DNA of 64,000 nt. Origin: Lactobacillales bacterium (lineage in GTDB: Bacteria; Bacillota_I; Bacilli_A; RF39; UBA660). Shown piece after piece: positions 8,904 to 20,118 of the stretch; positions within the stretch are counted from its first letter, which is position 1; every line of letters starts with the position of its first letter. The notes beneath the pieces are model-generated. The model was not told the origin of the DNA. It worked only from the letters and a program-made list of their open reading frames with translations, and did not search any database. The stretch is from positions 723 through 64,722 of the forward strand of contig SVAG01000006.1 of the NCBI GenBank assembly GCA_015059545.1. The letters run 5' to 3'. The position numbers were made by a program, and so were the translations under genes.

Positions 8904-9830
8904 ATGAATAAGATATTCAAAACTCTTGATCAACAAATTGAAATATTAAAATCAAGAAACCTTATTATAAATGATGAAGAAAGTACTAAAGATATATTAC
9001 TTAGAGAAAACTATTTCTTTATAAATGGATATCGTCATATGTTTTTAGATAGTGAAAGAAGTAGAAATTTTTTAGAAGGAACAACATTTGAAGAATTATA
9101 TGCTACATTTTTATTCGATAGAGATGTAAGAAATATAATGTTTAAACATTTACTTATAGTTGAAAATAATTTCAAATCGATTATAAGTTATCAATTATCT
9201 AAAAAATATGGGTTTAAAGAAAAAGATTACTTGGATCCAAAAAACTTTACACAAGATAGTTTAAAATCAAGACATGTTCATGATATTTTAAATAAAATGA
9301 GAAGACAAATTAGAGTTAATGGTAGACAGCATACTGCAACTCTTCACTATTTAAGTAATTATGGATATATTCCTATGTGGATCTTAGTAAAAGTTTTATC
9401 ATTTGGAATAATTGCAGAATTATATGACATTTTAAAATATGAAGATCAAATGACTATTGCAGATTTATATCATTTAGATCCAGATACATTATCAACATAT
9501 CTTCATTTACTTGCAAATTTTAGAAATCTATGTGCTCATGAAGATATTTTATACGATCATAGAACACAAAAAGAAATACCAGATAATAAATATCATTATT
9601 TATTAGATATTGAAATGAAAGATGATCATTATATATATGGAAAAAATGATTTATTTGCAGTAGTAATTATGTTAAAAGAATTATTAACTGAACAAGAATT
9701 TAATGAATTTATTTCAGAATTAGGATATGAAATAGATTTGTTAGACGGAAAAATTAATGTAATTCCAACTAATATAATTTTAAATTGTATTGGTTTTCCA
9801 AATAATTGGCGAGATATAAATAAAGTATAG
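8904..9830 (+). CDS. Abi-family abortive-infection protein, Abi_2/AbiD-AbiF-like
   Basis: N-terminal LDQQIEILKSRNLIINDEE..LLRENYFFINGY is characteristic of Abi_2 (PF07751). 308 aa. Confidence 0.6.
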   Translation: MNKIFKTLDQQIEILKSRNLIINDEESTKDILLRENYFFINGYRHMFLDSERSRNFLEGTTFEELYATFLFDRDVRNIMFKHLLIVENNFKSIISYQLSKKYGFKEKDYLDPKNFTQDSLKSRHVHDILNKMRRQIRVNGRQHTATLHYLSNYGYIPMWILVKVLSFGIIAELYDILKYEDQMTIADLYHLDPDTLSTYLHLLANFRNLCAHEDILYDHRTQKEIPDNKYHYLLDIEMKDDHYIYGKNDLFAVVIMLKELLTEQEFNEFISELGYEIDLLDGKINVIPTNIILNCIGFPNNWRDINKV

Positions 9831-9838
9831 GAGGATAC

Positions 9839-10930
9839 ATGAAAAATAAATTAAATTATTTGATAGGTATTATTATTTCGTTATTTGTAGGATGTATGTG
9901 TACATTGATAGTTTTAAATAATTTTAATTTATTAGGTAGTAATAAAAAAGAAATAATAGAAAAAACCATAAATGAAGTTAACGTAACTGAAACAGATACA
10001 CTTAAAAATTCTATTGATAAAGTTTATGATGCTGTTGTAGTTATACAAGGATATGAGAATGGTAAATTAAGTAGTACAGGTACAGGTTTTTATTATAAAA
10101 AAGATTCTAAAAGAGGTTATATAATAACTAATCATCATGTTATAGAAGATAGCGATTTAATTAAAGTAACAAATACTTCTAATGTTGAAAGTGAAGCTAC
10201 CTTGCTTGGAAGTGATGAATATTTAGATATAGCTATATTGTCTGTTGATGCAAAGGATGTTATTAAAGTAGCTAAATTAGGTGATACTTCTAAAGTTAAT
10301 GTTGGTGATACTGTATTTACAGTAGGATCTCCTTTAGGTATTAAATATATGGGAACAGTAACAAAAGGAATTTTATCTGGTAAAAATAGACAAGTAACAG
10401 TTAGTGTTTCTAGTAATAAATTTATTATGGATGTCTTACAAACAGATGCAGCTATAAACCCTGGTAATAGTGGAGGACCTCTTTTAAACATTAATGGTGA
10501 AGTTATAGGAGTTACATCTTTAAAATTAGTACAAGATGAAATAGAAGGAATGGGTTTTGCTTTACCAATTGAATCGGTAAAAAATTCATTAGAAAGTTTA
10601 GAAAATGGTAAAGAAATTAACAGACCTGTATTCGGAGTTCAATTGCTAGATGTAGAAAATAAGTCTATGCTTAGAAGATATGGTATAGAGTTAAGTGATA
10701 AAATAAATAACGGAGCAATTATAATTAAAATAGAAAAAAATACATCTGCTTCTGAATCAGAATTAAAAGTTGGTGACATTATAGTTAAAATTAATGATGA
10801 TAAAGTAAAAGATTCTGCACATTTTAGATATTGTTTATATAAATATAGTATTGGAGATACAATTAAAGTAACTTACAATAGAAATGGTAAAGAAAATACT
10901 ATAAGTGTAAAATTAACTGATAAATCTTAA
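9839..10930 (+). CDS. htrA: HtrA/DegP-family trypsin-like serine protease with a PDZ domain
   Basis: N-terminal TM helix, an ITNHHV His region, DAAINPGNSGGPLLN catalytic Ser, and a C-terminal PDZ-like region. Confidence 0.85.
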   Translation: MKNKLNYLIGIIISLFVGCMCTLIVLNNFNLLGSNKKEIIEKTINEVNVTETDTLKNSIDKVYDAVVVIQGYENGKLSSTGTGFYYKKDSKRGYIITNHHVIEDSDLIKVTNTSNVESEATLLGSDEYLDIAILSVDAKDVIKVAKLGDTSKVNVGDTVFTVGSPLGIKYMGTVTKGILSGKNRQVTVSVSSNKFIMDVLQTDAAINPGNSGGPLLNINGEVIGVTSLKLVQDEIEGMGFALPIESVKNSLESLENGKEINRPVFGVQLLDVENKSMLRRYGIELSDKINNGAIIIKIEKNTSASESELKVGDIIVKINDDKVKDSAHFRYCLYKYSIGDTIKVTYNRNGKENTISVKLTDKS

Positions 10931-10957: not shown

Positions 10958-11152
10958 TTCCACAATATAAAATATGTATATATAATTAATTATTACAGAA
11001 AATAAATATTATAATAATATTTTAAATTTTATAAATTATATTTGATAAAAATGTCTTAAAATGTAAAATTAAATGTAAATTAAATTAATTTTGATTGACT
11101 AAATAAAAATACATATGATATAATCGTATTAATGATAGGAGGTTTATACAAT

Positions 11153-11665
11153 ATGGAAAAGAAAAAGAATTTTGTAATCGGTACTTTACTTGCTGCAATC
11201 GTTTTAATGTCAGTAGGTTACGCAGCATTAGCTCAAGTATTAACTATTAACGGTACTGCTAACATTAGTGCTGATTGGGATGTTGAAATCACAGGAATTA
11301 CAGAAGGTACTTTAACAGGAGCAACTACACAAACTGTTACTTCAGATGCTACTTCTGCAACATTCAATGTTGATTTAGCTTATCCAGGTGCAACTGCTAC
11401 TTACGAAATAGATATTGAAAACAAAGGAACAATCGATGCTGTATTAGAAAGTATTACAGGTGTAGATGCTGCAAACACTGCACTTCCAACTGAAGTTCAA
11501 TATACAGTAACAGGAGTTGCTGAAGGAGATACTTTAGATGCTAAAGCAACTACAAAAGCAATTGTTACAGTTACTTGGGTAGCTAGCGCTGACAATACTG
11601 ATACTGTTCCAACAACAACATCAAAAACTGCAACAATTAACTTAAATTATGTTCAAAATACATAA
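11153..11665 (+). CDS. Secreted TasA/camelysin-like beta-rich protein (paralog 1) with a putative SipW-type signal
   Basis: MEKKKNFVIGTLLAAIVLMSVGYAALA|QVLTINGTANI, with Ala-x-Ala before Gln. The body is T/V/A-rich and ends ..ATINLNYVQNT. AGGAGG RBS 10 nt upstream. The ORF-track start at 11132 is an extension. Confidence 0.6.
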   Translation: MEKKKNFVIGTLLAAIVLMSVGYAALAQVLTINGTANISADWDVEITGITEGTLTGATTQTVTSDATSATFNVDLAYPGATATYEIDIENKGTIDAVLESITGVDAANTALPTEVQYTVTGVAEGDTLDAKATTKAIVTVTWVASADNTDTVPTTTSKTATINLNYVQNT

Positions 11666-11670
11666 TAAAA

Positions 11671-11699
11671 AATAAGGGACAGTAATGTCCTTATTTTTG
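11671..11699 (+). terminator. Rho-independent terminator
   Basis: aagggaca-gtaa-tgtcctt hairpin followed by a T-run. Confidence 0.7.
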
Positions 11700-11713: not shown

Positions 11714-12874
11714 ATGAGAAGACGAAGAAGAAGAAAAGAATTAAGTTTAACTAAAATAATTGTTCTTTTTGTTGTATGTACTTTAACTTTTAGTGTTGGA
11801 TATTCACTTTTATCTCAACAATTATCAGTAGAAGGTACAGTAAACCTTTTGTATGAAAAAGAACTAACTTGTAAGGAATATGTAACGGATGAGTTAAAAT
11901 TAACTTATGATAATAAAATGTTATGGCATAATGCAGGTTTAAATTATATGCAAATTGATATAACATTAACTAATTTAACACAAGAAGAAATGACTGACTG
12001 GAAAGTAATGATAAAGTTTATTAGTGATATTGAAATATCGGGTTCTTGGGCAGGTAATTATACAGAAAGTGATAATAAAGTTACAATAACAGGATTAGAT
12101 TGGAATAAAACATTAGCACCTGGTGGACAAACTACTTTTGGATTTCAAGTAAGTACACCTGATGAAGAAATTCATTTAAGCTCAATTTATCTTAATGGTG
12201 ATTTAGCAATACCTGGAGAATCATGTAGTAATGTTTCGGATGGAGACAACACAGGCGGAGATAACACAGGTGGAGATAACACAGGCGGAGACAACACAGG
12301 TGGAGATAACACAGGCGGAGACAACACAGGCGGAGACAACACAGGTGGAGATAACACAGGTGGAGATAACACAGGTGGAGATAATACAGGCGGAGATAAC
12401 ACAGGTGGAGATAACACAGGTGGAGATAATACAGGCGGAGATAACACAGGCGGAGATAACACAGGCGGAGACAACACAGGCGGAGATAACACAGGTGGAG
12501 ATAACACAGGTGGAGATAACACAGGTGGAGATAACACAGGTGGAGGAACATTTACTCCAGAAATAACATCTTCAAATGTAGATGTAAAAGTTACGAATAC
12601 AACTTCATGGGGAACTGAAGGGAATTATACTTATCAATATGATATTACTGTTACAAATAATTCGGATGTCAATATAGATGGATGGAGTTTTCAATTTGAG
12701 ATTCCTGATGGTGCTTCTATGGGAGATTATTGGCAATGTGAATATATAAATGCGGATGGAGTTGTTACAATATTATCCAATACAAATACTGCAAAATTAG
12801 AAGTTGGACAATCTGCTCAAATAGGATTCCACATAAAGGTTCCAACAAACACTTATGTACTTAAAGTAAGATAG
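11714..12874 (+). CDS. Secreted protein with the same SVGY..LSQ signal motif, two CBM2-like beta-sandwich domains and a (GGDNT)x~20 linker
   Basis: [35 protein letters not shown]. The first domain has ...[19 protein letters not shown], as in CBM2. The second domain has W..GW.FQFE..W...[10 protein letters not shown]. Confidence 0.65.
12240..12545 (+). repeat. Array of about 20 copies of a 15-bp repeat, GGAGA(C/T)AACACAGG(C/T), encoding (GGDNT)n
   Basis: Direct reading of the sequence. Two unit variants alternate irregularly. The array is in frame, a multiple of 3. Confidence 0.95.
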
Positions 12875-12883
12875 GAGTTAATT

Positions 12884-14068
12884 ATGACAAAAATTAGTTT
12901 AAGAACAATATTAATATATTTAATTGCAATTCTTTATACTGTATTTGTTTCAATATTATTTATTGATGATATTGTTTCAAGTTACAATTTATTGATAAAT
13001 CCTATCTTTTGGATAGCTTTATTTGGTTTATCATTATATTTATTTAAAGATAGTAAAACTCGAATAAAATTAAAAAAAGATAAGGTTCAAACTATATTTA
13101 TAATAATCCTTATGTACTTGATTTTCTATTTTTTATCAGGGTTATTCTTTGGATACTCTAGAAGCCCATATGCCCATTCAATAATTGGGATAATCAAAAA
13201 TTTATGGTCATTTGTAATAATAATATTTTTTCAAGAATATGTTAGACATATATTGGCAAATAATTGTTCTAAAAGAAAACTTTTCTATGTATTAACAACT
13301 ATACTATTTATATTAATTGAAATAAATTTTTATAATTTTGAAAACAATTTTGTATCAGGAGAGTCAGGTTTTAAATATATCAGTTCAATTTTATTACCAA
13401 TAATAGTTAGAAATATATTATTTACTTATTTAACACTTGAATGTGGTTTTGAGGCTGTATTAGCATATAGAATGCCAATTATGTTTGCTAATATAATATT
13501 ACCAATATTTCCTGATTTAAACTGGTTTATTATAGCTTTATATGAATTAGTTTTACCATTTGTATGTTTTATTGTTATAAATTATATGCATACAAAAAAA
13601 CAAGAAAGAATATCAAGAAGAAGAATAAGAAAGCAAAATCCAATTAAAAATGTACCATTTATATTAGTATTATTCTTATTTGTTGGGTTTGTTGCTGGTT
13701 TCTTTAAATATATGCCTATTGCAGTTATGTCTAATAGTATGTCTAATGTAATAAATAGGGGAGATATGGTTGTAGTAGAAAAATTAAGTAAAAAAGAAGT
13801 TAAAAATTTGAAGAAACAAGATATTATTGAATATAATTTAGATGGAGATGTTATTATCCATAGAATTATAGAAGTTCAAAAGCAAAAGGATGGATCTGTT
13901 AGATTTATAACTATGGGTGATAATAATACAGCTCCAGATAATAAACCTGTAAAACAAGATCAGGTTATGGGAAAAGTAAAATTTAAAGTTTCTTATATAG
14001 GATATCCAGTTGTGTATTTAAATGACTTCTTCCAAAAAACTAAACCAGATGTTGAAATGGGAAAATAA
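12884..14068 (+). CDS. sipW: Fusion protein of an N-terminal polytopic membrane domain (about 8 TM, 290 aa) and a C-terminal SipW/Sec11-type (archaeal-type) signal peptidase I domain
   Basis: The C-terminal domain has AVMSNSMSNVINRGDMVVVEK (SxSMxP..GD box), VIIHRII (His box) and FITMGDNNTAPD (GDNN box), as in TIGR02228. The preceding 290 aa are multi-pass hydrophobic. Confidence 0.7.
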   Translation: MTKISLRTILIYLIAILYTVFVSILFIDDIVSSYNLLINPIFWIALFGLSLYLFKDSKTRIKLKKDKVQTIFIIILMYLIFYFLSGLFFGYSRSPYAHSIIGIIKNLWSFVIIIFFQEYVRHILANNCSKRKLFYVLTTILFILIEINFYNFENNFVSGESGFKYISSILLPIIVRNILFTYLTLECGFEAVLAYRMPIMFANIILPIFPDLNWFIIALYELVLPFVCFIVINYMHTKKQERISRRRIRKQNPIKNVPFILVLFLFVGFVAGFFKYMPIAVMSNSMSNVINRGDMVVVEKLSKKEVKNLKKQDIIEYNLDGDVIIHRIIEVQKQKDGSVRFITMGDNNTAPDNKPVKQDQVMGKVKFKVSYIGYPVVYLNDFFQKTKPDVEMGK

Positions 14069-14075
14069 ATATGTA

Positions 14076-14102
14076 AAATGCAGTGTAAACTGCATTTTTT
14101 TT
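14076..14102 (+). terminator. Rho-independent terminator
   Basis: aaatgcag-tgtaaac-ctgcattt hairpin followed by a T8 run. Confidence 0.75.
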
Positions 14103-14159: not shown

Positions 14160-14672
14160 ATGACAGATAAAAAAAGAAATATACTTATAGTAGCTTTATT
14201 TGTAGCAATAGTGGCAATGTCTGTTGGTTATGCAGCATTAGCACAAGTTTTAAATATTAATGGTACAGCAAATATAGCGGCAGAATGGAATGTAGAAATA
14301 ACTGATATTCAAGTTAAAGAACAAAACGGTGCAACTGATAGAGTTAATCCATCATATACAAGTAAAACAGCAAGTTTTGATGTAAATTTAGCTTATCCAG
14401 GAGCAAGTTCTACATATATAGTAACAGTAAAAAATAGTGGAACTATAAATGCAAAATTATCTGAAATTACAGGTATAGATGCAGCAAATTTATCTGATCC
14501 AACTGCAGTACAATATACTGTTACAAAAGTGGACACTAATGATGAATTAAATGTAGGTGAAACTAAAACATTTGAAGTAAAAGTTGAATGGTTAAGTACA
14601 GATGATGGTACAAATATAACAGCTTCAAATAAAACAGCAACAATTAACTTTAATTATGTACAAAATCAATAA
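14160..14672 (+). CDS. Secreted TasA/camelysin-like beta-rich protein (paralog 2) with a putative SipW-type signal
   Basis: MTDKKRNILIVALFVAIVAMSVGYAALA|QVLNINGTANI and ...ATINFNYVQNQ C-terminus. It aligns end to end with the 11153..11665 product. Confidence 0.6.
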   Translation: MTDKKRNILIVALFVAIVAMSVGYAALAQVLNINGTANIAAEWNVEITDIQVKEQNGATDRVNPSYTSKTASFDVNLAYPGASSTYIVTVKNSGTINAKLSEITGIDAANLSDPTAVQYTVTKVDTNDELNVGETKTFEVKVEWLSTDDGTNITASNKTATINFNYVQNQ

Positions 14673-14701: not shown

Positions 14702-15766
14702 ATGAGTAACAATATGACTTTTCCAAAAAGAAAAGTTCTTAAAAAATGGGCTCGTTATTCTTTATTAGGAATAATAATAACATTTTTTATATCTTCTATT
14801 GTTATTATATTAACTAGTTTTAATAAACCTGATAAAAACGAAGACGTATTATTATACTCATATAATGTAAATCAGGATTTAGATTATAAAGTAAATTTAT
14901 ATGACAATAGTTATATAGAATCTAGTTATTTAGGGAAAGATGATACTTATATTTCAGATTTAATAAAAGAAATACAAATAGATTATAAGTATAAATATGC
15001 TGGTTCAAAAGTTGTTCCATTAAATTATACTTATGATGTAGTAGCGACTATAAATGGTGAATATAGTCTAGAAGAAGAAGATTCTAAAGTATGGACTAAA
15101 GAATATAAATTGGTTCAAAATAGAAATGGTAAAATTACAGACAAGACATCTATAAATATAACTGAACCAGTAAGTTTAAATTTTAGTTATTATAATAATG
15201 TAGTATCAAATTTTAGAAAAGAACTACGTTTACCAATAAAAGCCTCATTAATAGTAGTATTTAAGATAAACGTTACAGGTGAAGTATCAGGACAAAAAAT
15301 AAATGATACAAAACAAATGACTTTATCATTTCCTTTAAATCAGCAAGCATTTAAAATTACTGAAAAATATGAGGAAAACTTTAATAATAGTATAAAGCCA
15401 CCTGTAGAAAAGAAAGAAAAAGTTAATTCTAGAAAATTAATATGTGGAATTATATTATTATCAACAGCTATATTTATATTTATATTATTCTTTAGAGAAA
15501 TATTTAATATTCCAAGAAAAAATAAATATACAATTCAATTAAATAAAATATTAAAAGAATATGGAGATATCATAATCGAAGTAATAAATCCAGTAAGTGA
15601 ATTTGAAATGGATATTGTAGAAGTCAAAAACTTCAATGAAATGATAGACTTAGAAGAAGAACTTAGGGTTCCAATAATGTTCTATGAAACAATAGAATAT
15701 TTAGAAGGAGAATTTACATTAGTTCATAATAATATATTATATAAATTTGTTTTAAGAAATGAATAG
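14702..15766 (+). CDS. Bitopic membrane protein of unknown function (354 aa), a possible fibre-assembly accessory
   Basis: TM helix at residues 20-40, a central beta-rich extracytoplasmic region, a second TM at about 240-260, and an acidic C-terminal cytoplasmic domain. Its position in the locus is the basis for the accessory suggestion. Confidence 0.45.
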   Translation: MSNNMTFPKRKVLKKWARYSLLGIIITFFISSIVIILTSFNKPDKNEDVLLYSYNVNQDLDYKVNLYDNSYIESSYLGKDDTYISDLIKEIQIDYKYKYAGSKVVPLNYTYDVVATINGEYSLEEEDSKVWTKEYKLVQNRNGKITDKTSINITEPVSLNFSYYNNVVSNFRKELRLPIKASLIVVFKINVTGEVSGQKINDTKQMTLSFPLNQQAFKITEKYEENFNNSIKPPVEKKEKVNSRKLICGIILLSTAIFIFILFFREIFNIPRKNKYTIQLNKILKEYGDIIIEVINPVSEFEMDIVEVKNFNEMIDLEEELRVPIMFYETIEYLEGEFTLVHNNILYKFVLRNE

Positions 15767-15831: not shown

Positions 15832-17187
15832 ATGGCAAAGATAGTTATTGATGCTGGACATGGAGGAGATGATCCTGGTGCTAGTGGAAATGGTATTATA
15901 GAAAAAGATTTAGTTTTAGACATTTCTAATTATATGTATGATAGATTTAGAGAATTAGGTATACCTGTTGCTTTAACTAGATCTACAGATATTACATTAA
16001 ATCCAACAGATAGAACAAATAAAATTCTAAATCAATTTGGTAATACAAGTGATGTAATTGTTATTTCCAATCATATAAATGCAGGTGGAGGAGATGGTGC
16101 TGAAGTAATATATGCGCTTAGAGATAATAATAATTTATCTAATTTAATATTAGAAAATTTTGAAGAAGTAGGTCAAAATGTAAGAAAAGCATATCAGAGA
16201 AGATTACCTAGTGATACTTCAAAAGATTATTATTTTATACATAGAAATACAGGAAATACGGAACCTATTATAGTAGAATATGGATTTTTAGATAGCACAG
16301 GTGATGATGTAAATCAATTAAAAAATAATTGGAGAAATTTAGCAGAAGCTGTTGTTAAATCAGTAGCAGAGTATACAAATACATCATATGATAAAGGGTT
16401 AGGAACTACTTATACAGTAAAAAGTGGAGATACATTATGGAGTATAGCTAAAAAATTTAATATGACTGTAAATGAATTAAAAGAAATAAATAATTTGACA
16501 AGTAATACACTTAGAATAGGCCAAATATTGAAGATAAATGAGCAACTTCCATCATCAGATGAAAATACATATATAGTAAAAAGAGGGGATACATTATATG
16601 GAATTGCTAATAAATATGGTGTTACAGTTAATGAAATAAAGAATTTAAATAATTTAATGAATAGTTCACTTAGTATAGGTCAAATTCTTAAAATTCCAGT
16701 AAATGAAGACAATATGGAAGATTATTTAATTTACACAGTAAAAAATGGAGATACATTATACGGAATAGCAAGAACATATAATATAACACCAAGTGAAATT
16801 ATTTCTTATAATAATTTAAATAGTACGGTATTAAATATAGGACAAAATTTAAAAATACCATTTAAAAATATTTCTGACGATGAACAAAATATAGAATATA
16901 TTATTTATACAGTAAAAAGCGGAGACTCTTTATATAGTATAGCTAGAAAATACAATACATCTGTTAATGAGATAATGAATTTAAATAATTTAACAAGTAA
17001 TTTATTAAGCATAGGTCAAACTTTAAAAATTCCTGTAGAAGAATCAAAAGATATAGTTTATACAGTAAAGAGTGGAGATAATCTTTATAGTATAGCAAGA
17101 AAATATAATACAACTGTTGCTAATATAAAAAATAAAAATAATTTAACAACTAATTTACTTAGTATAGGACAAAAATTAATAATATAA
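15832..17187 (+). CDS. N-acetylmuramoyl-L-alanine amidase (Amidase_3) with five C-terminal LysM repeats
   Basis: IDAGHGGDDPGA motif, then 5x YTVKxGDTLYxIAxKYN..Nx(L/I)..IGQxLKIP LysM units. Confidence 0.85.
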   Translation: MAKIVIDAGHGGDDPGASGNGIIEKDLVLDISNYMYDRFRELGIPVALTRSTDITLNPTDRTNKILNQFGNTSDVIVISNHINAGGGDGAEVIYALRDNNNLSNLILENFEEVGQNVRKAYQRRLPSDTSKDYYFIHRNTGNTEPIIVEYGFLDSTGDDVNQLKNNWRNLAEAVVKSVAEYTNTSYDKGLGTTYTVKSGDTLWSIAKKFNMTVNELKEINNLTSNTLRIGQILKINEQLPSSDENTYIVKRGDTLYGIANKYGVTVNEIKNLNNLMNSSLSIGQILKIPVNEDNMEDYLIYTVKNGDTLYGIARTYNITPSEIISYNNLNSTVLNIGQNLKIPFKNISDDEQNIEYIIYTVKSGDSLYSIARKYNTSVNEIMNLNNLTSNLLSIGQTLKIPVEESKDIVYTVKSGDNLYSIARKYNTTVANIKNKNNLTTNLLSIGQKLII

Positions 17188-17216
17188 AAGCACTTAATCA
17201 AGTGCTTTTTATTTTT
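17186..17216. terminator. Bidirectional terminator between convergent genes
   Basis: aaaagcactt-aatca-agtgctttt hairpin with A- and T-runs on both sides. Confidence 0.7.
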
Positions 17217-20118
17217 CTAATTTATATATATAATGTCTTGCTGTTGTGTTTTCAACTTTTTTTGAAAAACCTAAAAATATTTTATTATTAATAATTTTTA
17301 TACCTTCTGGCTCCCATATTTCTTTATTAGTAGGATTACCTAATTTATAACGATATGCAATCTTTTCGCCTTGAAGCGAATAAATTGAAAGGAATGGTCC
17401 TATGCTGTAATTATTGTTAGTAGTAGGGTTTCCTTCTAGTATATATATATAATTTCCATTAACTGTAAACCCTTGCCAACTTATATTGTTAGTATTATCT
17501 GGTAATGAAAATTTAAAAGCTATTTTAGGTGAACTTGAATTTATGAAATCATCTAAATTATATACTTTATAAGTTGTATCATGCCTTATAACTAAAATTC
17601 GATTATTATTATCAATGGCTGCTTGTCCTTGATAATTGTAAGTTTTAACATTTAATTGATCTTTAGTTATTGTTTTACAATTATTCCCATTTGGACTAAA
17701 TAAATTATTTGTTAATTTAATTCTACATATTTTTGTTGATTTATATTCTCCAGGTGCATCTTTTTTTTCTATTCCATCACAACCAACCCATATAAATGTA
17801 TTGTTATTAGTTTTTTCAAAATCAATATTACCTAAGTGTCCAAATTTAGGAAGATTTATACATGAAACTATTGAGTTATTATTTGCATCTATTTTATTAA
17901 TATAAGCATCTCTTTGTGTAATGTATAAGTAGTTATCATCCTTAATCCATGATTGCATGTTTCTAGCTTTATTTGATAATGTTAACTTTGATTTATATAC
18001 TTTTTTAGTTGTTGTAGGATTAATATAATTTCCTGCAACTTTAACGCTTACTTTTGTTTTTGCTTTGAAATTTCCATCTTTAGTTTTAGCTGTAATAGTA
18101 GCTGTACCTATTTTTTTAGCTGTTATAATACCTTTTGCATCAACAGAAACAATTTCTGGGTCATTACTAGACCAAATAATTGTTTTATTAGTAGCATCAT
18201 TAGGTTTAATGGTAGCAATAATTTTTTTAGTATTAGTTTTATTAATAGTAATATTACTAGTATTTAATTTAATTCCAGTAACAGGTGTTTTAACAGTTAT
18301 AGTAGATATTATTTTATAATTATTTTCTTTAGTGGCTGCTGTTATATTTGTTATACCGTCACTAATAGCTTTTATATTACCATTTTGATCAACAGTAGCA
18401 ACTTTCGGATTACTACTAGACCAAATAATTGTTTTATTAGTGGCATCACTAGGTTTAATAGTAGCAGTAATTTTTGAATTTTGACCTTTATTTAAATTAA
18501 TCTTCTTTTTATCAATTTGTATTCCAGTAACAGGTACATTTACTATAACTCTACAAGATGTTTTAAAGTTTCCGTCTTTAGAAGAAATATAAATATATGT
18601 TATTCCTCCAGAAACAGCAGTAACTTTTCCGTTTTGATCGACAGTAGCGATTTTTGGATTACTACTAGACCAAGTTACACTTTTATTTGATGCATATTCA
18701 GGATATATATCATAAGTTAAATTAAAACTCTTATTTTTATTTAGTGTTAAACTTGTTTTATTTAATTTAATATTTGTAACTAAATTTTTTACTGTAACAT
18801 TTATGGATGTTTTAAATTTATTATCTTCTGATTTTACTATTATAGTTGTGGAACCATTAGAAATACCTTTAATATTACCATTTTGATCAACAGTAGCGAT
18901 TTTTTGATTGCTACTAGACCAAATAATTGTTTTATTAGTAGCATCACTTGGGGTAAAAATGACATTAACTTTTTTTATCTCATTTTTTCCTAATTGTAGG
19001 TTAGTAACATTTGTTTTAATTCCATTTAATGGGACATAAACATTAACTTTGCAAGTTGCTTTTGTATTTCCATCTTTAGAAGAAGCAGTTATAATTGAAT
19101 TACCACTAGAAATAGCAGTAACTTTTCCGTTTTGATCAACAGTAGCGATTTTAGAATTACTACTAGACCAAATAATATCTTTATTTCCAGCATCATTAGG
19201 TTTTATAGTATAAGTTAAATTAAATGTATTATTCTTTTTTAAAGAAATATTTGTTTTATTTAAAGTTATATTAGTTACTAGTTTATTAACTATTATTTTA
19301 ATAGAAGTTTTAAATTTATTATCTTTAGTTTTAACTGTAATAGTTGTAGTTCCATTAGAAATAGCAGTAACTTTTCCGTTTTGATCAACTGTAGCGATTT
19401 TAGAATTACTACTGGACCAATAAAAATCTTTATTGTCTGCATCATTAGGTGTTATAATCAAGTTTAATTTTTTTGTAGAATCATTATTCATATATATATT
19501 TTTTTCTTTAAATTTAATCTCTTTTATATGTGATGTAACTTTTATATTACATTTATCTTTATAGCCACCATCTTTAGAAGTAACAGTGATAATTGTATTT
19601 CCTTTTTGTAATGCAGTAACTTTTCCATTTTGATCAACAGTAGCAACTTTTGGGTTACTACTAGACCAGTAAAAATCTTTATTAGTGGCGTTATTAGGTT
19701 CAATATTAACTTTTAAATTAATAGAATCTGATTTATTTAAAGTTTTATTATTATAATTTAGTTTTACGTTTTTAATATATATATATTGTTTTTCATTTGT
19801 TTCTTTTTCCCATTTTGCTGTTAAAGTAGTGTTTTTTGTTATTTGAATATCATTCTCTATTTTGTTATTATTTTCATCATACCATCCTAAAAATATGTAG
19901 TTTTCTTTTTGAGGAGATATTAAATTTTTTAAATTACTATTACAATCTATTTTTTTATTAGGAATATTAAAATCACTATTACTATTAAAGACTATTAAAC
20001 ATTCATTTTTAGTTGAAGAAAATTTATTTGTTGTAAAAATAAGTATTCCAGTAAATAAAAATACAAATATAAGAATCCTATAATCTATTATTTTTAAAAT
20101 TTTCTTCATAAATATCAT
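17209..20118 (-). CDS. Large surface protein with about 8 tandem bacterial Ig-like (Big_2) domains and a C-terminal non-Ig domain of about 280 aa
   Basis: N-terminal TM/signal. Repeated ..ATNKDFYWSSSNPKVATVDQNGKVTA...TIITV.. Big_2 units. The C-terminal domain is rich in N/Y/W. Confidence 0.75.
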   Translation of the reverse strand: MIFMKKILKIIDYRILIFVFLFTGILIFTTNKFSSTKNECLIVFNSNSDFNIPNKKIDCNSNLKNLISPQKENYIFLGWYDENNNKIENDIQITKNTTLTAKWEKETNEKQYIYIKNVKLNYNNKTLNKSDSINLKVNIEPNNATNKDFYWSSSNPKVATVDQNGKVTALQKGNTIITVTSKDGGYKDKCNIKVTSHIKEIKFKEKNIYMNNDSTKKLNLIITPNDADNKDFYWSSSNSKIATVDQNGKVTAISNGTTTITVKTKDNKFKTSIKIIVNKLVTNITLNKTNISLKKNNTFNLTYTIKPNDAGNKDIIWSSSNSKIATVDQNGKVTAISSGNSIITASSKDGNTKATCKVNVYVPLNGIKTNVTNLQLGKNEIKKVNVIFTPSDATNKTIIWSSSNQKIATVDQNGNIKGISNGSTTIIVKSEDNKFKTSINVTVKNLVTNIKLNKTSLTLNKNKSFNLTYDIYPEYASNKSVTWSSSNPKIATVDQNGKVTAVSGGITYIYISSKDGNFKTSCRVIVNVPVTGIQIDKKKINLNKGQNSKITATIKPSDATNKTIIWSSSNPKVATVDQNGNIKAISDGITNITAATKENNYKIISTITVKTPVTGIKLNTSNITINKTNTKKIIATIKPNDATNKTIIWSSNDPEIVSVDAKGIITAKKIGTATITAKTKDGNFKAKTKVSVKVAGNYINPTTTKKVYKSKLTLSNKARNMQSWIKDDNYLYITQRDAYINKIDANNNSIVSCINLPKFGHLGNIDFEKTNNNTFIWVGCDGIEKKDAPGEYKSTKICRIKLTNNLFSPNGNNCKTITKDQLNVKTYNYQGQAAIDNNNRILVIRHDTTYKVYNLDDFINSSSPKIAFKFSLPDNTNNISWQGFTVNGNYIYILEGNPTTNNNYSIGPFLSIYSLQGEKIAYRYKLGNPTNKEIWEPEGIKIINNKIFLGFSKKVENTTARHYIYKLEK

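Follow-up and report, generated by a model that had tools for sequence, protein, structure and literature searches.

A tandem CBM2 protein with an in-frame 15-bp repeat linker as a candidate strand-donating end piece of an AbpX/TasA-type fibre

What does a protein with two carbohydrate-binding modules (CBMs), joined by 20 identical pentapeptides, do in a cassette of fibre-type genes? The question arises from a 64,000-nucleotide (nt) stretch of DNA of an uncultured gut Lactobacillales bacterium (assembly GCA_015059545.1, contig SVAG01000006.1, positions 723 to 64,722), which is the window analysed here. A gene at 11714..12874 (+) encodes a protein of 386 amino acids (aa), hereafter the CBM protein, composed of a leader, a donor-strand-like segment, a CBM2 domain, a (GDNTG)20 linker and a CBM2/CBM49 domain. 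It is the second gene of a five-gene cassette that further encodes fibre subunit 1, a signal peptidase I with 9–10 transmembrane (TM) segments, fibre subunit 2 and a DUF5305 protein. We propose, at a probability of roughly 0.55, that the CBM protein is a minor, strand-donating end piece (initiator or cap) of an AbpX/TasA-type fibre that bears two CBM2 modules.

The N terminus ties the CBM protein to the fibre subunits. Its first ~46 residues are homologous to the leader and strand of both subunits (subunit stretch ...AMSVGYAALAQVLNINGTANIA), with 44% identity over 34 aa in BLASTP (E=3e-8) and a probability of 96% in hhalign (E=4.7e-9), where high column confidence is limited to residues 14–46. 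The motif common to the CBM protein and the subunits reads SVGY..L.Q.L...GT.N, and within the window the leader/strand motif is carried by the three cassette proteins only. Residues 1–34 (11714..11815, +) form the signal or leader, with an Arg-rich n-region (RRRRRRK), one hydrophobic helix and the SVGY motif, after which comes ..LLS; by hydropathy, the CBM protein has a single hydrophobic segment, at residues 15–33. Residues 35–46 (11816..11851, +) are the proposed donor strand, homologous to the subunits' N-terminal strand QVLNINGTANI. The strand register, Q-x-L-x-[IV]-x-G-T-x-N-[IL], is the same in the CBM protein and the subunits and alternates as donor strands do. Among nine first-round homologues of the CBM protein, F19, V28, G29, Y30, S31, L33, L37 and G41 are invariant, making this motif more conserved than the CBM domains. 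Residues 35–46 have a predicted local distance difference test score (pLDDT) below 50 in the monomer model, and the equivalent segment is unstructured in the subunit model too. The same is reported for the donor strands of AbpX.

The strand differs from that of the subunits at one position of note. At residues 35–40 (11816-11833) the Asn of the subunits (..NINGT..) is replaced by Glu in the CBM protein (..SVEGT..), and the nine first-round homologues all have Glu but one (P0009, Thr). In the AbpX donor strand, an acidic residue binds calcium.

Where the leader is cut bears on what the mature protein carries. In the CBM protein, cleavage would fall after G29 or S34; the -3/-1 rule is satisfied at SVG|Y as well as at LLS|Q. 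The mature subunits would start at a canonical A-L-A|Q site, by extrapolation from the AbpX alignment, with S-V-G|Y, which also fits the rule, as the alternative. With either site, the Q-x-L-x-[IV]-x-G-T-x-N-[IL] stretch would remain on the mature protein. The subunit strand is amphipathic, and the invariant Tyr lies 5 residues upstream of it, becoming the first mature residue only under the SVG|Y candidate. In the AbpX alignment, mature AbpX residues 9–12 (SATI, the end of the W2–I12 donor strand) fall on the subunits' TANI. We rejected cleavage after the entire shared motif (NIAA|EW in the subunits) because the AbpX alignment retains TANI in the mature protein.

Downstream of the strand, the CBM protein consists of two CBM2 domains and the linker between them. 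Against the Pfam family CBM_2 (PF00553) it scored 86.1 bits (E=2.3e-24; cutoff 24) in two stretches, and the C-terminal domain additionally matched CBM49, annotated as carbohydrate-binding (E=7.7e-11); both families were matched by 9/9 first-round homologues. The N-terminal domain spans residues 53–171 (11870..12226, +), with Cys53 and Cys171 at its ends and the best CBM_2 stretch at 79–163. The C-terminal domain spans residues 283–386 (12560..12871, +), with CBM49 at 291–372 and the second CBM_2 stretch. A single-chain AlphaFold2 (AF2) model, built from a nine-sequence alignment, comprises a helix at 12–36, an unstructured segment at 31–48, a beta-sandwich at 50–172 (pLDDT ~85–95), a stretch at pLDDT 33–45 over 173–279 and a second sandwich at 280–386 (pLDDT ~80–90). 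The linker is predicted to be disordered. The top Foldseek match of the model in the PDB was the Cellulomonas fimi CBM2a 6qfs_A (E=4.7e-8, target TM-score (TMt) 0.85, root-mean-square deviation 1.9 Å, 106 columns), followed by EngD 3ndy_E, 1exg, the chitin-binding CBM2s 2rtt, 2cwr, 5dhd and 5dhe, and ScLPMO10C 6f7e. The family and fold of both flanking domains are thereby settled as CBM2. An earlier note on this DNA, made from the letters alone, had read the protein as tandem CBM2-like beta-sandwiches with a W..G... motif in the first domain; the motif is present in the translation, and the CBM profile search that it suggested, together with the predicted structure, bears the reading out.

Sequence alignment to solved modules suggests what these domains bind. 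In an ungapped phmmer alignment of the N-terminal domain to the CBM2a of Cex (1exg), W96, W112 and W130 align with W38, W54 and W72, and PGG..FGF lies on AGG..FGF. The C-terminal domain aligns to 1exg at E=2e-6 and keeps the W54 equivalent. In Cex, W17, W54 and W72 form a planar strip of three exposed ligand-face aromatics. The nearest sequence relatives after the CBM protein's own family are the CBM2s of a glycoside hydrolase family 18 (GH18) chitinase, of xylanases and of a polyhydroxyalkanoate (PHA)-depolymerase-family esterase. By analogy, the ligand would be crystalline cellulose or chitin, with xylan also a candidate. The protein resembles the CBM2s of C. fimi Cex and CenA and of archaeal and streptomycete chitinases in family, fold, Trp54 and Trp72 equivalents, FGF motif and terminal Cys pair; the pair is a disulfide in Cex, occurs here in the window's lineage and is missing from distant homologues. 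It differs from Cex- and CenA-type CBM2s in being joined to a fibre-type leader, not to a catalytic domain, in its host, a low-G+C gut Bacilli member and not an actinobacterium, and in a C-terminal copy that lacks one ligand-face aromatic. We also considered the N-terminal CBM2 as a strand-accepting pilin domain and rejected this, as it superposes on complete CBM2 modules (TMt 0.85) and hhalign confidence is low past residue 46. Since the CBM protein has no subunit domain and both sandwiches are complete CBM2 folds, it should be able to donate a strand but not to accept one.

The cassette places the protein in a particular type of locus. Subunit 1 (11153..11665, +; 170 aa) is AbpX/TasA-superfamily-like, and its mature part has an isoelectric point (pI) of 4.05. 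Subunit 2 (14160..14672, +; 170 aa, pI 4.31, AF2 pLDDT 82) is 53% identical to it. These 170-aa subunits matched no Pfam family. A profile of 23 subunits searched against the PDB gave two significant matches, both to AbpX of Pyrodictium abyssi (9sj2, E=2.1e-4; 9rhp, E=6.7e-4), with the next match at E=0.3. The peptidase gene (12884..14068, +; 394 aa) begins 9 nt past the stop codon of the CBM gene; its product has 9–10 predicted TM segments ahead of an archaeal/SipW-type catalytic domain and matched TIGR02228 (E=5.5e-24), SipW (E=1.5e-18) and Peptidase_S26/S24. The last gene (14702..15766, +) encodes a 354-aa protein with 2 TM segments and a Pfam DUF5305 match (E=4.4e-22).

Each of these components has a counterpart in described fibre loci. 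Bacterial (Bacillota) AbpX loci, as set out in passages of the AbpX preprint, encode acidic subunits of pI ~4, a dedicated ten-TM signal peptidase I, a DUF5305 accessory and minor subunits, with tip or anchor proteins for which attachment through donor-strand complementation is predicted, and with wall anchors (SLH, LPXTG) frequent in the bacterial loci (bioRxiv 10.64898/2026.01.04.697558). In the haloarchaeal Tafi system, passages of two papers assign TafD as the peptidase, TafG as the DUF5305 protein and TafC as the tip adhesin (PMC11821415, PMC12337348). The DUF5305 family has been proposed, in passages of all three sources, as an accessory of fibre-dedicated signal peptidases (PMC11821415, PMC12337348, bioRxiv 10.64898/2026.01.04.697558). 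As far as those passages go, the cassette shares with the AbpX and Tafi loci (TafA/C/E, TafD, TafG) a ~170-aa acidic subunit whose leader is long, a dedicated signal peptidase I with multiple TM segments (TIGR02228), DUF5305, a second minor subunit and an extra tip or anchor protein. Judged from its proteins' sequences, the locus matches the AbpX branch of TasA-like donor-strand fibres and not the tapA-sipW-tasA operon. It departs from the Tafi and AbpX loci, again as portrayed in those passages, in its extra protein: their tip proteins, such as TafC, combine a subunit-like with a lectin-like domain, and the bacterial ones carry SLH or LPXTG, whereas the CBM protein lacks a subunit domain and carries, as cargo, two CBM2 modules with a variable-number tandem repeat (VNTR) linker. 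Neither the passages of those papers nor a literature text search yielded CBM2 cargo on AbpX/Tafi-type fibres, and literature text searches for CBM-bearing TasA-type accessories and VNTR CBM linkers gave nothing relevant.

The arrangement is conserved. We compared near-identical contigs (L001–L003), two sister species (among these loci, L005 and L006), a human-gut metagenome-assembled genome (MAG; L007) a very distant locus (L010) and a related strain (L011); the cassette, with the second subunit as an optional member, is kept in L001–L007, L010 and L011. At every locus with recovered flanking DNA, the CBM gene lies in the fibre cassette, down to ~22–30% identity.

The closest functional precedent is TapA of Bacillus subtilis. 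The role of strand-donating initiator of TasA was deduced for TapA from the likeness of its N terminus to the TasA donor strand and its already complete immunoglobulin (Ig) fold (PMC9674648, PMC10151520), and the functions described for it are anchoring and assembly (PMC9674648). The CBM protein is likewise an accessory encoded beside a SipW-type peptidase and a subunit, with a leader (cleavage here being predicted), a donor-strand-like N-terminal segment and a complete, non-accepting domain. Unlike TapA, with its V-set Ig domain, it carries two CBM2 modules on a long repeat tether; and unlike tapA-sipW-tasA, the locus has a 9–10-TM peptidase with a DUF5305 partner and AbpX-like subunits, not camelysin/TasA proper. 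Pfam and NCBIfam scans of the CBM protein found no TapA homology and gave CBM_2, CBM49 and an exoglucanase CBM region only. The protein appears TapA-like in logic, not in ancestry, and not a member of the TapA family. The earlier note had assigned it a TapA-like role from gene position and had called the repeat a tunable stalk for a matrix- or wall-binding accessory. The first claim is supported as a matter of functional logic, on the stronger ground of leader/strand homology and complete folds; the protein is not a TapA homologue, and the locus is of AbpX type. Of the second, in-frame length variation is supported, while the repeat tethers two CBMs to each other and not a cell to a binding module. 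That picture was essentially right, refined here by an AbpX-type locus, a protein that is a probable strand-donating end piece and not a mere neighbour, and a repeat that joins two modules.

We next describe the linker. Tandem Repeats Finder reported one array, at 12241-12545 (+), with a 15-bp unit, 20.3 copies, 92% matches, 0 indels and a score of 498. In peptide phase the array covers 12242-12541, encoding 20 identical GDNTG units at residues 177–276, a disordered, acidic inter-domain tether (disorder as predicted, pLDDT 33–41; linker pI 4.05). The unit is GGAGA(C/T)AA(C/T)ACAGG(C/T), with AAT present in two units. Five DNA variants of the unit occur in the window's array, differing in the third base of the Asp, Asn and Gly codons; as all these differences are synonymous, the peptide repeat is perfect. 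The G+C content is 51% in the array versus 24% in the 64-kb window. The earlier note had given the same 15-bp array and a perfect (GGDNT)x20 linker; its coordinates and description hold, except that its unit consensus missed the AAC/AAT variation. It had also flagged spurious open reading frames (ORFs), and there are three, at 12187-12537 (-), 12192-12551 (-) and, out of frame on the sense strand, 12231-12566 (+), which are pure repeat translations, (LSPPV)n, (LCYLH)n and (EITQV)n. We rejected these ORFs within 12187..12566 as genes, since they translate to repeats alone and it is the in-frame reading that homologues conserve.

Other interpretations of the repeat peptide were tried and set aside. 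A pentapeptide-repeat beta-helix (PF01469/PF00805) was rejected, with Pentapeptide_2 scoring 15 bits (cutoff 26.4; E=0.024) and the region predicted disordered. So were an RTX-like GGxGxD calcium motif, whose register does not fit, and an N-glycosylation sequon, as GGDNT contains no N-x-S/T. It is a possibility that the Asp/Asn-rich Gly repeat is also calcium-responsive, in line with the calcium dependence of AbpX fibres.

The array varies in length between close relatives. Allele counts rest on four contigs of the window species and two of a sister species. The members of the 90%-identity cluster of the CBM protein measure 386, 386, 376 and 371 aa, with identical domains and 20, 20, 18 and 17 units, while the flanking DNA (6459 + 4642 bp, 11,101 bp) is 100% identical across the four contigs. 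Written as a string of unit variants, the window's array is BGECEBCGGHGGHEEBGGGG. The array of L001 lacks one GGH block (45 bp), that of L002 lacks two units near the 5' end, and that of L003 differs by two point changes, one of which turns Asn into Thr. Within the array, the longest exact repeat, 59 bp at offset 45, coincides with the GGH loss in L001. A pair of contigs from the sister species, separated by 3 mismatches and 2 gaps over 17 kb, has 11 GGDNT units in one and 12 in the other, giving proteins of 340 and 345 aa. A repeat-free orthologue cluster measures 285 aa in 7/7 members. Simple assembly collapse is argued against, because no internal exact repeat exceeds 59 bp and assemblers at k>=61 can resolve the array. 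The sister-species contig names carry the prefix k141_, which we take to mark MEGAHIT assemblies at k=141. Copy-number polymorphism is probable, though not certain. These counts, from metagenome assemblies, agree with the in-frame length variation that the earlier note had predicted, and the invariance that would have spoken against it was not seen.

Across the wider family, the linkers at this position are quite diverse. In GGDNT arrays, nine of ten unit variants (among units captured by regular expression) are synonymous, and L005 has a further, non-synonymous GEDNT unit; the synonymous bias suggests some constraint on the peptide. At the same inter-domain site, other orthologues carry a 21-bp array (GDTGGDS, 6.7 copies; L012 622-761), an 18-bp array (PTPDPD, 4.3 copies; L007 7503-7579), non-repetitive Asp/Asn/Glu-rich stretches, or almost nothing. 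Repeat linkers appear to have arisen repeatedly and independently at this site. Because linkers at the same site differ this widely, the exact peptide would not be required; what they have in common is acidity, disorder and length lability. In L011 the array mixes GGENT and GGDNT, with at least 23 units around a gap, owing to which gene calling recovered no more than the final 108 aa (P0216); this mixed, gapped array indicates that Asp/Glu exchange is tolerated and that such arrays can break assemblies.

In-frame VNTRs are familiar from surface proteins such as the staphylococcal Ser-Asp repeat proteins and streptococcal alpha-C/Rib, and Pro/Thr linkers from cellulases. The CBM protein shares with the former a low-complexity spacer, a unit that is a multiple of 3 and a copy number that differs between close strains, and its orthologues use PT/PD-type linkers at the same site. 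It differs in that the array tethers two binding modules instead of lifting a domain off the wall. Within the literature searched, GGDNT or GG[DE]NT was not found as a described linker type.

We propose the following sequence of events. The precursor would be exported via its Arg-rich signal and cut by the operon's multi-TM signal peptidase I, probably with its DUF5305 partner, at the SVGY...S/Q motif common to the subunits. The freed N-terminal strand, in the subunit register L-x-[IV]-x-G-T-x-N-[IL], would then enter the open groove of a subunit. With complete CBM2 sandwiches and no groove of its own, the CBM protein would only donate, and because it is donor-only its place would be confined to a single fibre end, where it would act as initiator or cap. 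The first CBM2 would sit ~15 residues from the strand junction and the second on a 100-residue, acidic, disordered (GDNTG)20 tether, letting the protein hold a crystalline polysaccharide (cellulose or chitin) in the gut at two points. Gain and loss of 15-bp units in frame, by slippage or unequal recombination, would generate tether-length alleles in one strain background.

Several observations weigh against this reading or parts of it. A peptidase cut after the whole shared motif would leave no donor strand, and the AbpX alignment that opposes such late cleavage has only its last 4 residues truly aligned. The match of the subunits to AbpX is weak, at 24.6 bits, and Foldseek with the subunit model found no significant match to AbpX or TasA, TasA (8aur) ranking 13th at E=0.028. 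Of 34 longer leader/strand matches scanned, most keep the subunit domain, judged by the alignment consensus, so that a donor without it is the exception. On the binding side, the C-terminal domain lacks the third aromatic, with Asn at the Cex W72 position, and the W17 equivalent of the N-terminal domain is ambiguous (W71 or Y78), lying outside the aligned block. As for the array, all alleles come from short-read metagenome assemblies, in which some differences could be assembly or sequencing errors; the two point changes in the L003 array are suspicious beside 0 in 11 kb of flanks; and the related L011 scaffold (L011 2540-2990, ENA ERZ28654337 scaffold_1089) has a 100-N gap inside its (GG[DE]NT) array.

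How else might these features be explained? The CBM protein could be a free, secreted, bivalent binder whose likeness to the subunits ends with the export and processing signal, owed to a common dedicated peptidase; once cleaved, it would diffuse away or remain in the matrix and cross-link polysaccharide, or coat plant or fungal fibre, outside the bacterial fibre. It contains no subunit domain, the segment in common with the subunits could serve peptidase recognition and not strand donation, and tandem CBMs with flexible linkers are, from general knowledge of carbohydrate-active enzymes, common in free cellulose-binding proteins. Yet the similarity to the subunits runs ~12 residues past either plausible cleavage site in the same alternating hydrophobic register, AbpX by alignment retains that stretch in its mature protein, and the gene stays within the fibre cassette at all loci with flanks, even at the lowest identities. 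We regard a free binder as unlikely, though a serious contender.

Two further explanations keep the protein at the cell. Its CBM2-like domains might bind the cell's own envelope or matrix polymer and not external cellulose or chitin, making it a cell-proximal anchor of the fibre, which is the matrix- or wall-binding version in the earlier note. The anchoring role described for TapA (PMC9674648) and the frequency, in passages on bacterial AbpX loci, of SLH/LPXTG wall anchors predicted to join by strand complementation speak for such an anchor, as does the cassette, in which Pfam and NCBIfam scans turned up no other anchor candidate. All solved CBM2s among the significant fold and sequence matches, however, bind cellulose or chitin; the next-nearest relatives are the chitinase, xylanase and esterase CBM2s named above; and the clade lives in herbivore and human guts, with a GH10 xylanase gene 7 kb upstream in a sister genome. 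A cell-proximal anchor is quite improbable on this balance. Less probable still, in our estimate, is a membrane-tethered adhesin whose leader remains as an uncleaved signal anchor, the repeat letting the distal CBM reach through or beyond the wall and copy number tuning that reach. A lone N-terminal TM helix behind a strongly positive n-region (RRRRRRK) would suit it, and low-complexity spacers are, as general knowledge has it, typical of Gram-positive surface proteins. The repeat, though, separates the two CBMs, and the first domain begins ~15 residues past the helix with no repeat between it and the anchor; a gene for a dedicated signal peptidase follows after 9 nt, and SVG|Y and LLS|Q, both invariant sites with small residues, obey the -3/-1 rule; and homologues with almost no linker exist.

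A strand-donating end piece, which we favour, would matter for several reasons. TasA-like donor-strand fibres have only recently been seen as a cross-domain family, and their ends and attachment targets are largely unknown outside B. subtilis. The five-gene cassette is a small test case, with an end piece of recognisable ligand class (predicted to be crystalline cellulose or chitin), which would open fibre polarity, initiation and substrate attachment to simple binding and labelling experiments. If true, it would give gut Firmicutes, next to cellulosomes and type IV pili, a third route of adhesion to fibre. The independent 15-, 18- and 21-bp in-frame arrays at one site offer a natural experiment on tether length in bivalent CBM binding. 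What is new is the combination of a TasA/AbpX fibre accessory with the linker of a VNTR surface protein, each kind being already known. A bolder version is tentative, with the odds well against it: a chaperone-free donor-strand fibre ending in a strand-only, two-CBM2 'grappling head', its reach set by a hypermutable in-frame minisatellite such that one clone makes length variants, would be an undescribed grip on insoluble plant or fungal polysaccharide.

The leader/strand module extends well beyond this cassette. A 51-position profile of it matched 1910 clusters (50% identity level) among 1.84 billion proteins. In the best 150 of the 1910 clusters, the match starts within the first 25 residues in 150/150, and the proteins are mostly subunit-sized. 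The module (..SVGYAxLxQxLxIxGTxxI..) is thus a large family without a Pfam model of its own. Some longer leader/strand proteins add C-terminal BspA-type leucine-rich repeat (LRR_5), DUF6273, DUF7507 or DUF285 modules, and may be decorated fibre subunits or adhesins. The strand-only, two-CBM2 architecture is rare, with ~21 clusters in 5.8 billion sequences, after which classical actinobacterial CBM2 enzymes follow at E ~1e-8. The sources named for it are MAGs labelled 'Lactobacillales bacterium' and 'Bacilli bacterium', one MAG each from a human gut and a water-deer rectum, and two contigs that had been binned as Muribaculaceae MAGs; the habitat of the host clade is herbivore and human guts.

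The cassette also carries candidate expression signals. A promoter-like site ahead of subunit 1, at 11095..11124 (+), TTGACT, 18 nt and TG-TATAAT, is the best regional match (11/12 positions, extended -10) and a consensus match only. Subunit 1 starts at ATG 11153 and not at the ATG 11132 of the ORF list (177 aa), because a ribosome-binding site (AGGAGG) lies at 11137-11142 and the promoter -10 ends at 11124; the call in L001 is also 170 aa. A terminator-like hairpin with a T-run (11675..11692, +; RNA fold -12.9 kcal/mol, z=-3.5) lies between subunit 1 and the CBM gene, and a bidirectional one (14075..14098, both strands) lies 3' of the peptidase gene. The region holds 6 terminator-like sites versus 0.9 expected. 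Hairpins after the subunit 1 and peptidase genes would fit an abundant subunit with scarcer accessories.

The surroundings of the cassette are in part conserved as well. Directly upstream, at 8904-10930, are an Abi_2 (abortive-infection-like) gene and an HtrA-type Trypsin_2/PDZ protease, a position kept in L004–L007 (sister species and human-gut MAG). Directly downstream of the DUF5305 gene, at 15832-17187, is an N-acetylmuramoyl-L-alanine amidase with five LysM repeats, in the same position in L001–L006; it could open the wall for fibre passage, or be unrelated. A gene for a 969-aa surface-type protein (17209-20118, -) converges on the amidase gene, with a common bidirectional terminator-like hairpin at 17186-17209. 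Its periodic ~83-aa domain repeat lies on diverged 249/498-bp tandem DNA repeats (74–76% matches), and a near-identical 966-aa gene in L001–L003 is annotated with Big_2 domains and a weak Flg_new match. In the sister species, a gene of the GH10 (xylanase) family lies ~7 kb upstream of the cassette (L005/L006 1-889), consistent with a plant-fibre-degrading lifestyle of the clade. At the window's left edge, 56-567 holds a 237-bp tandem repeat of 2.2 copies with 95% matches, possibly inside a gene that runs off the window.

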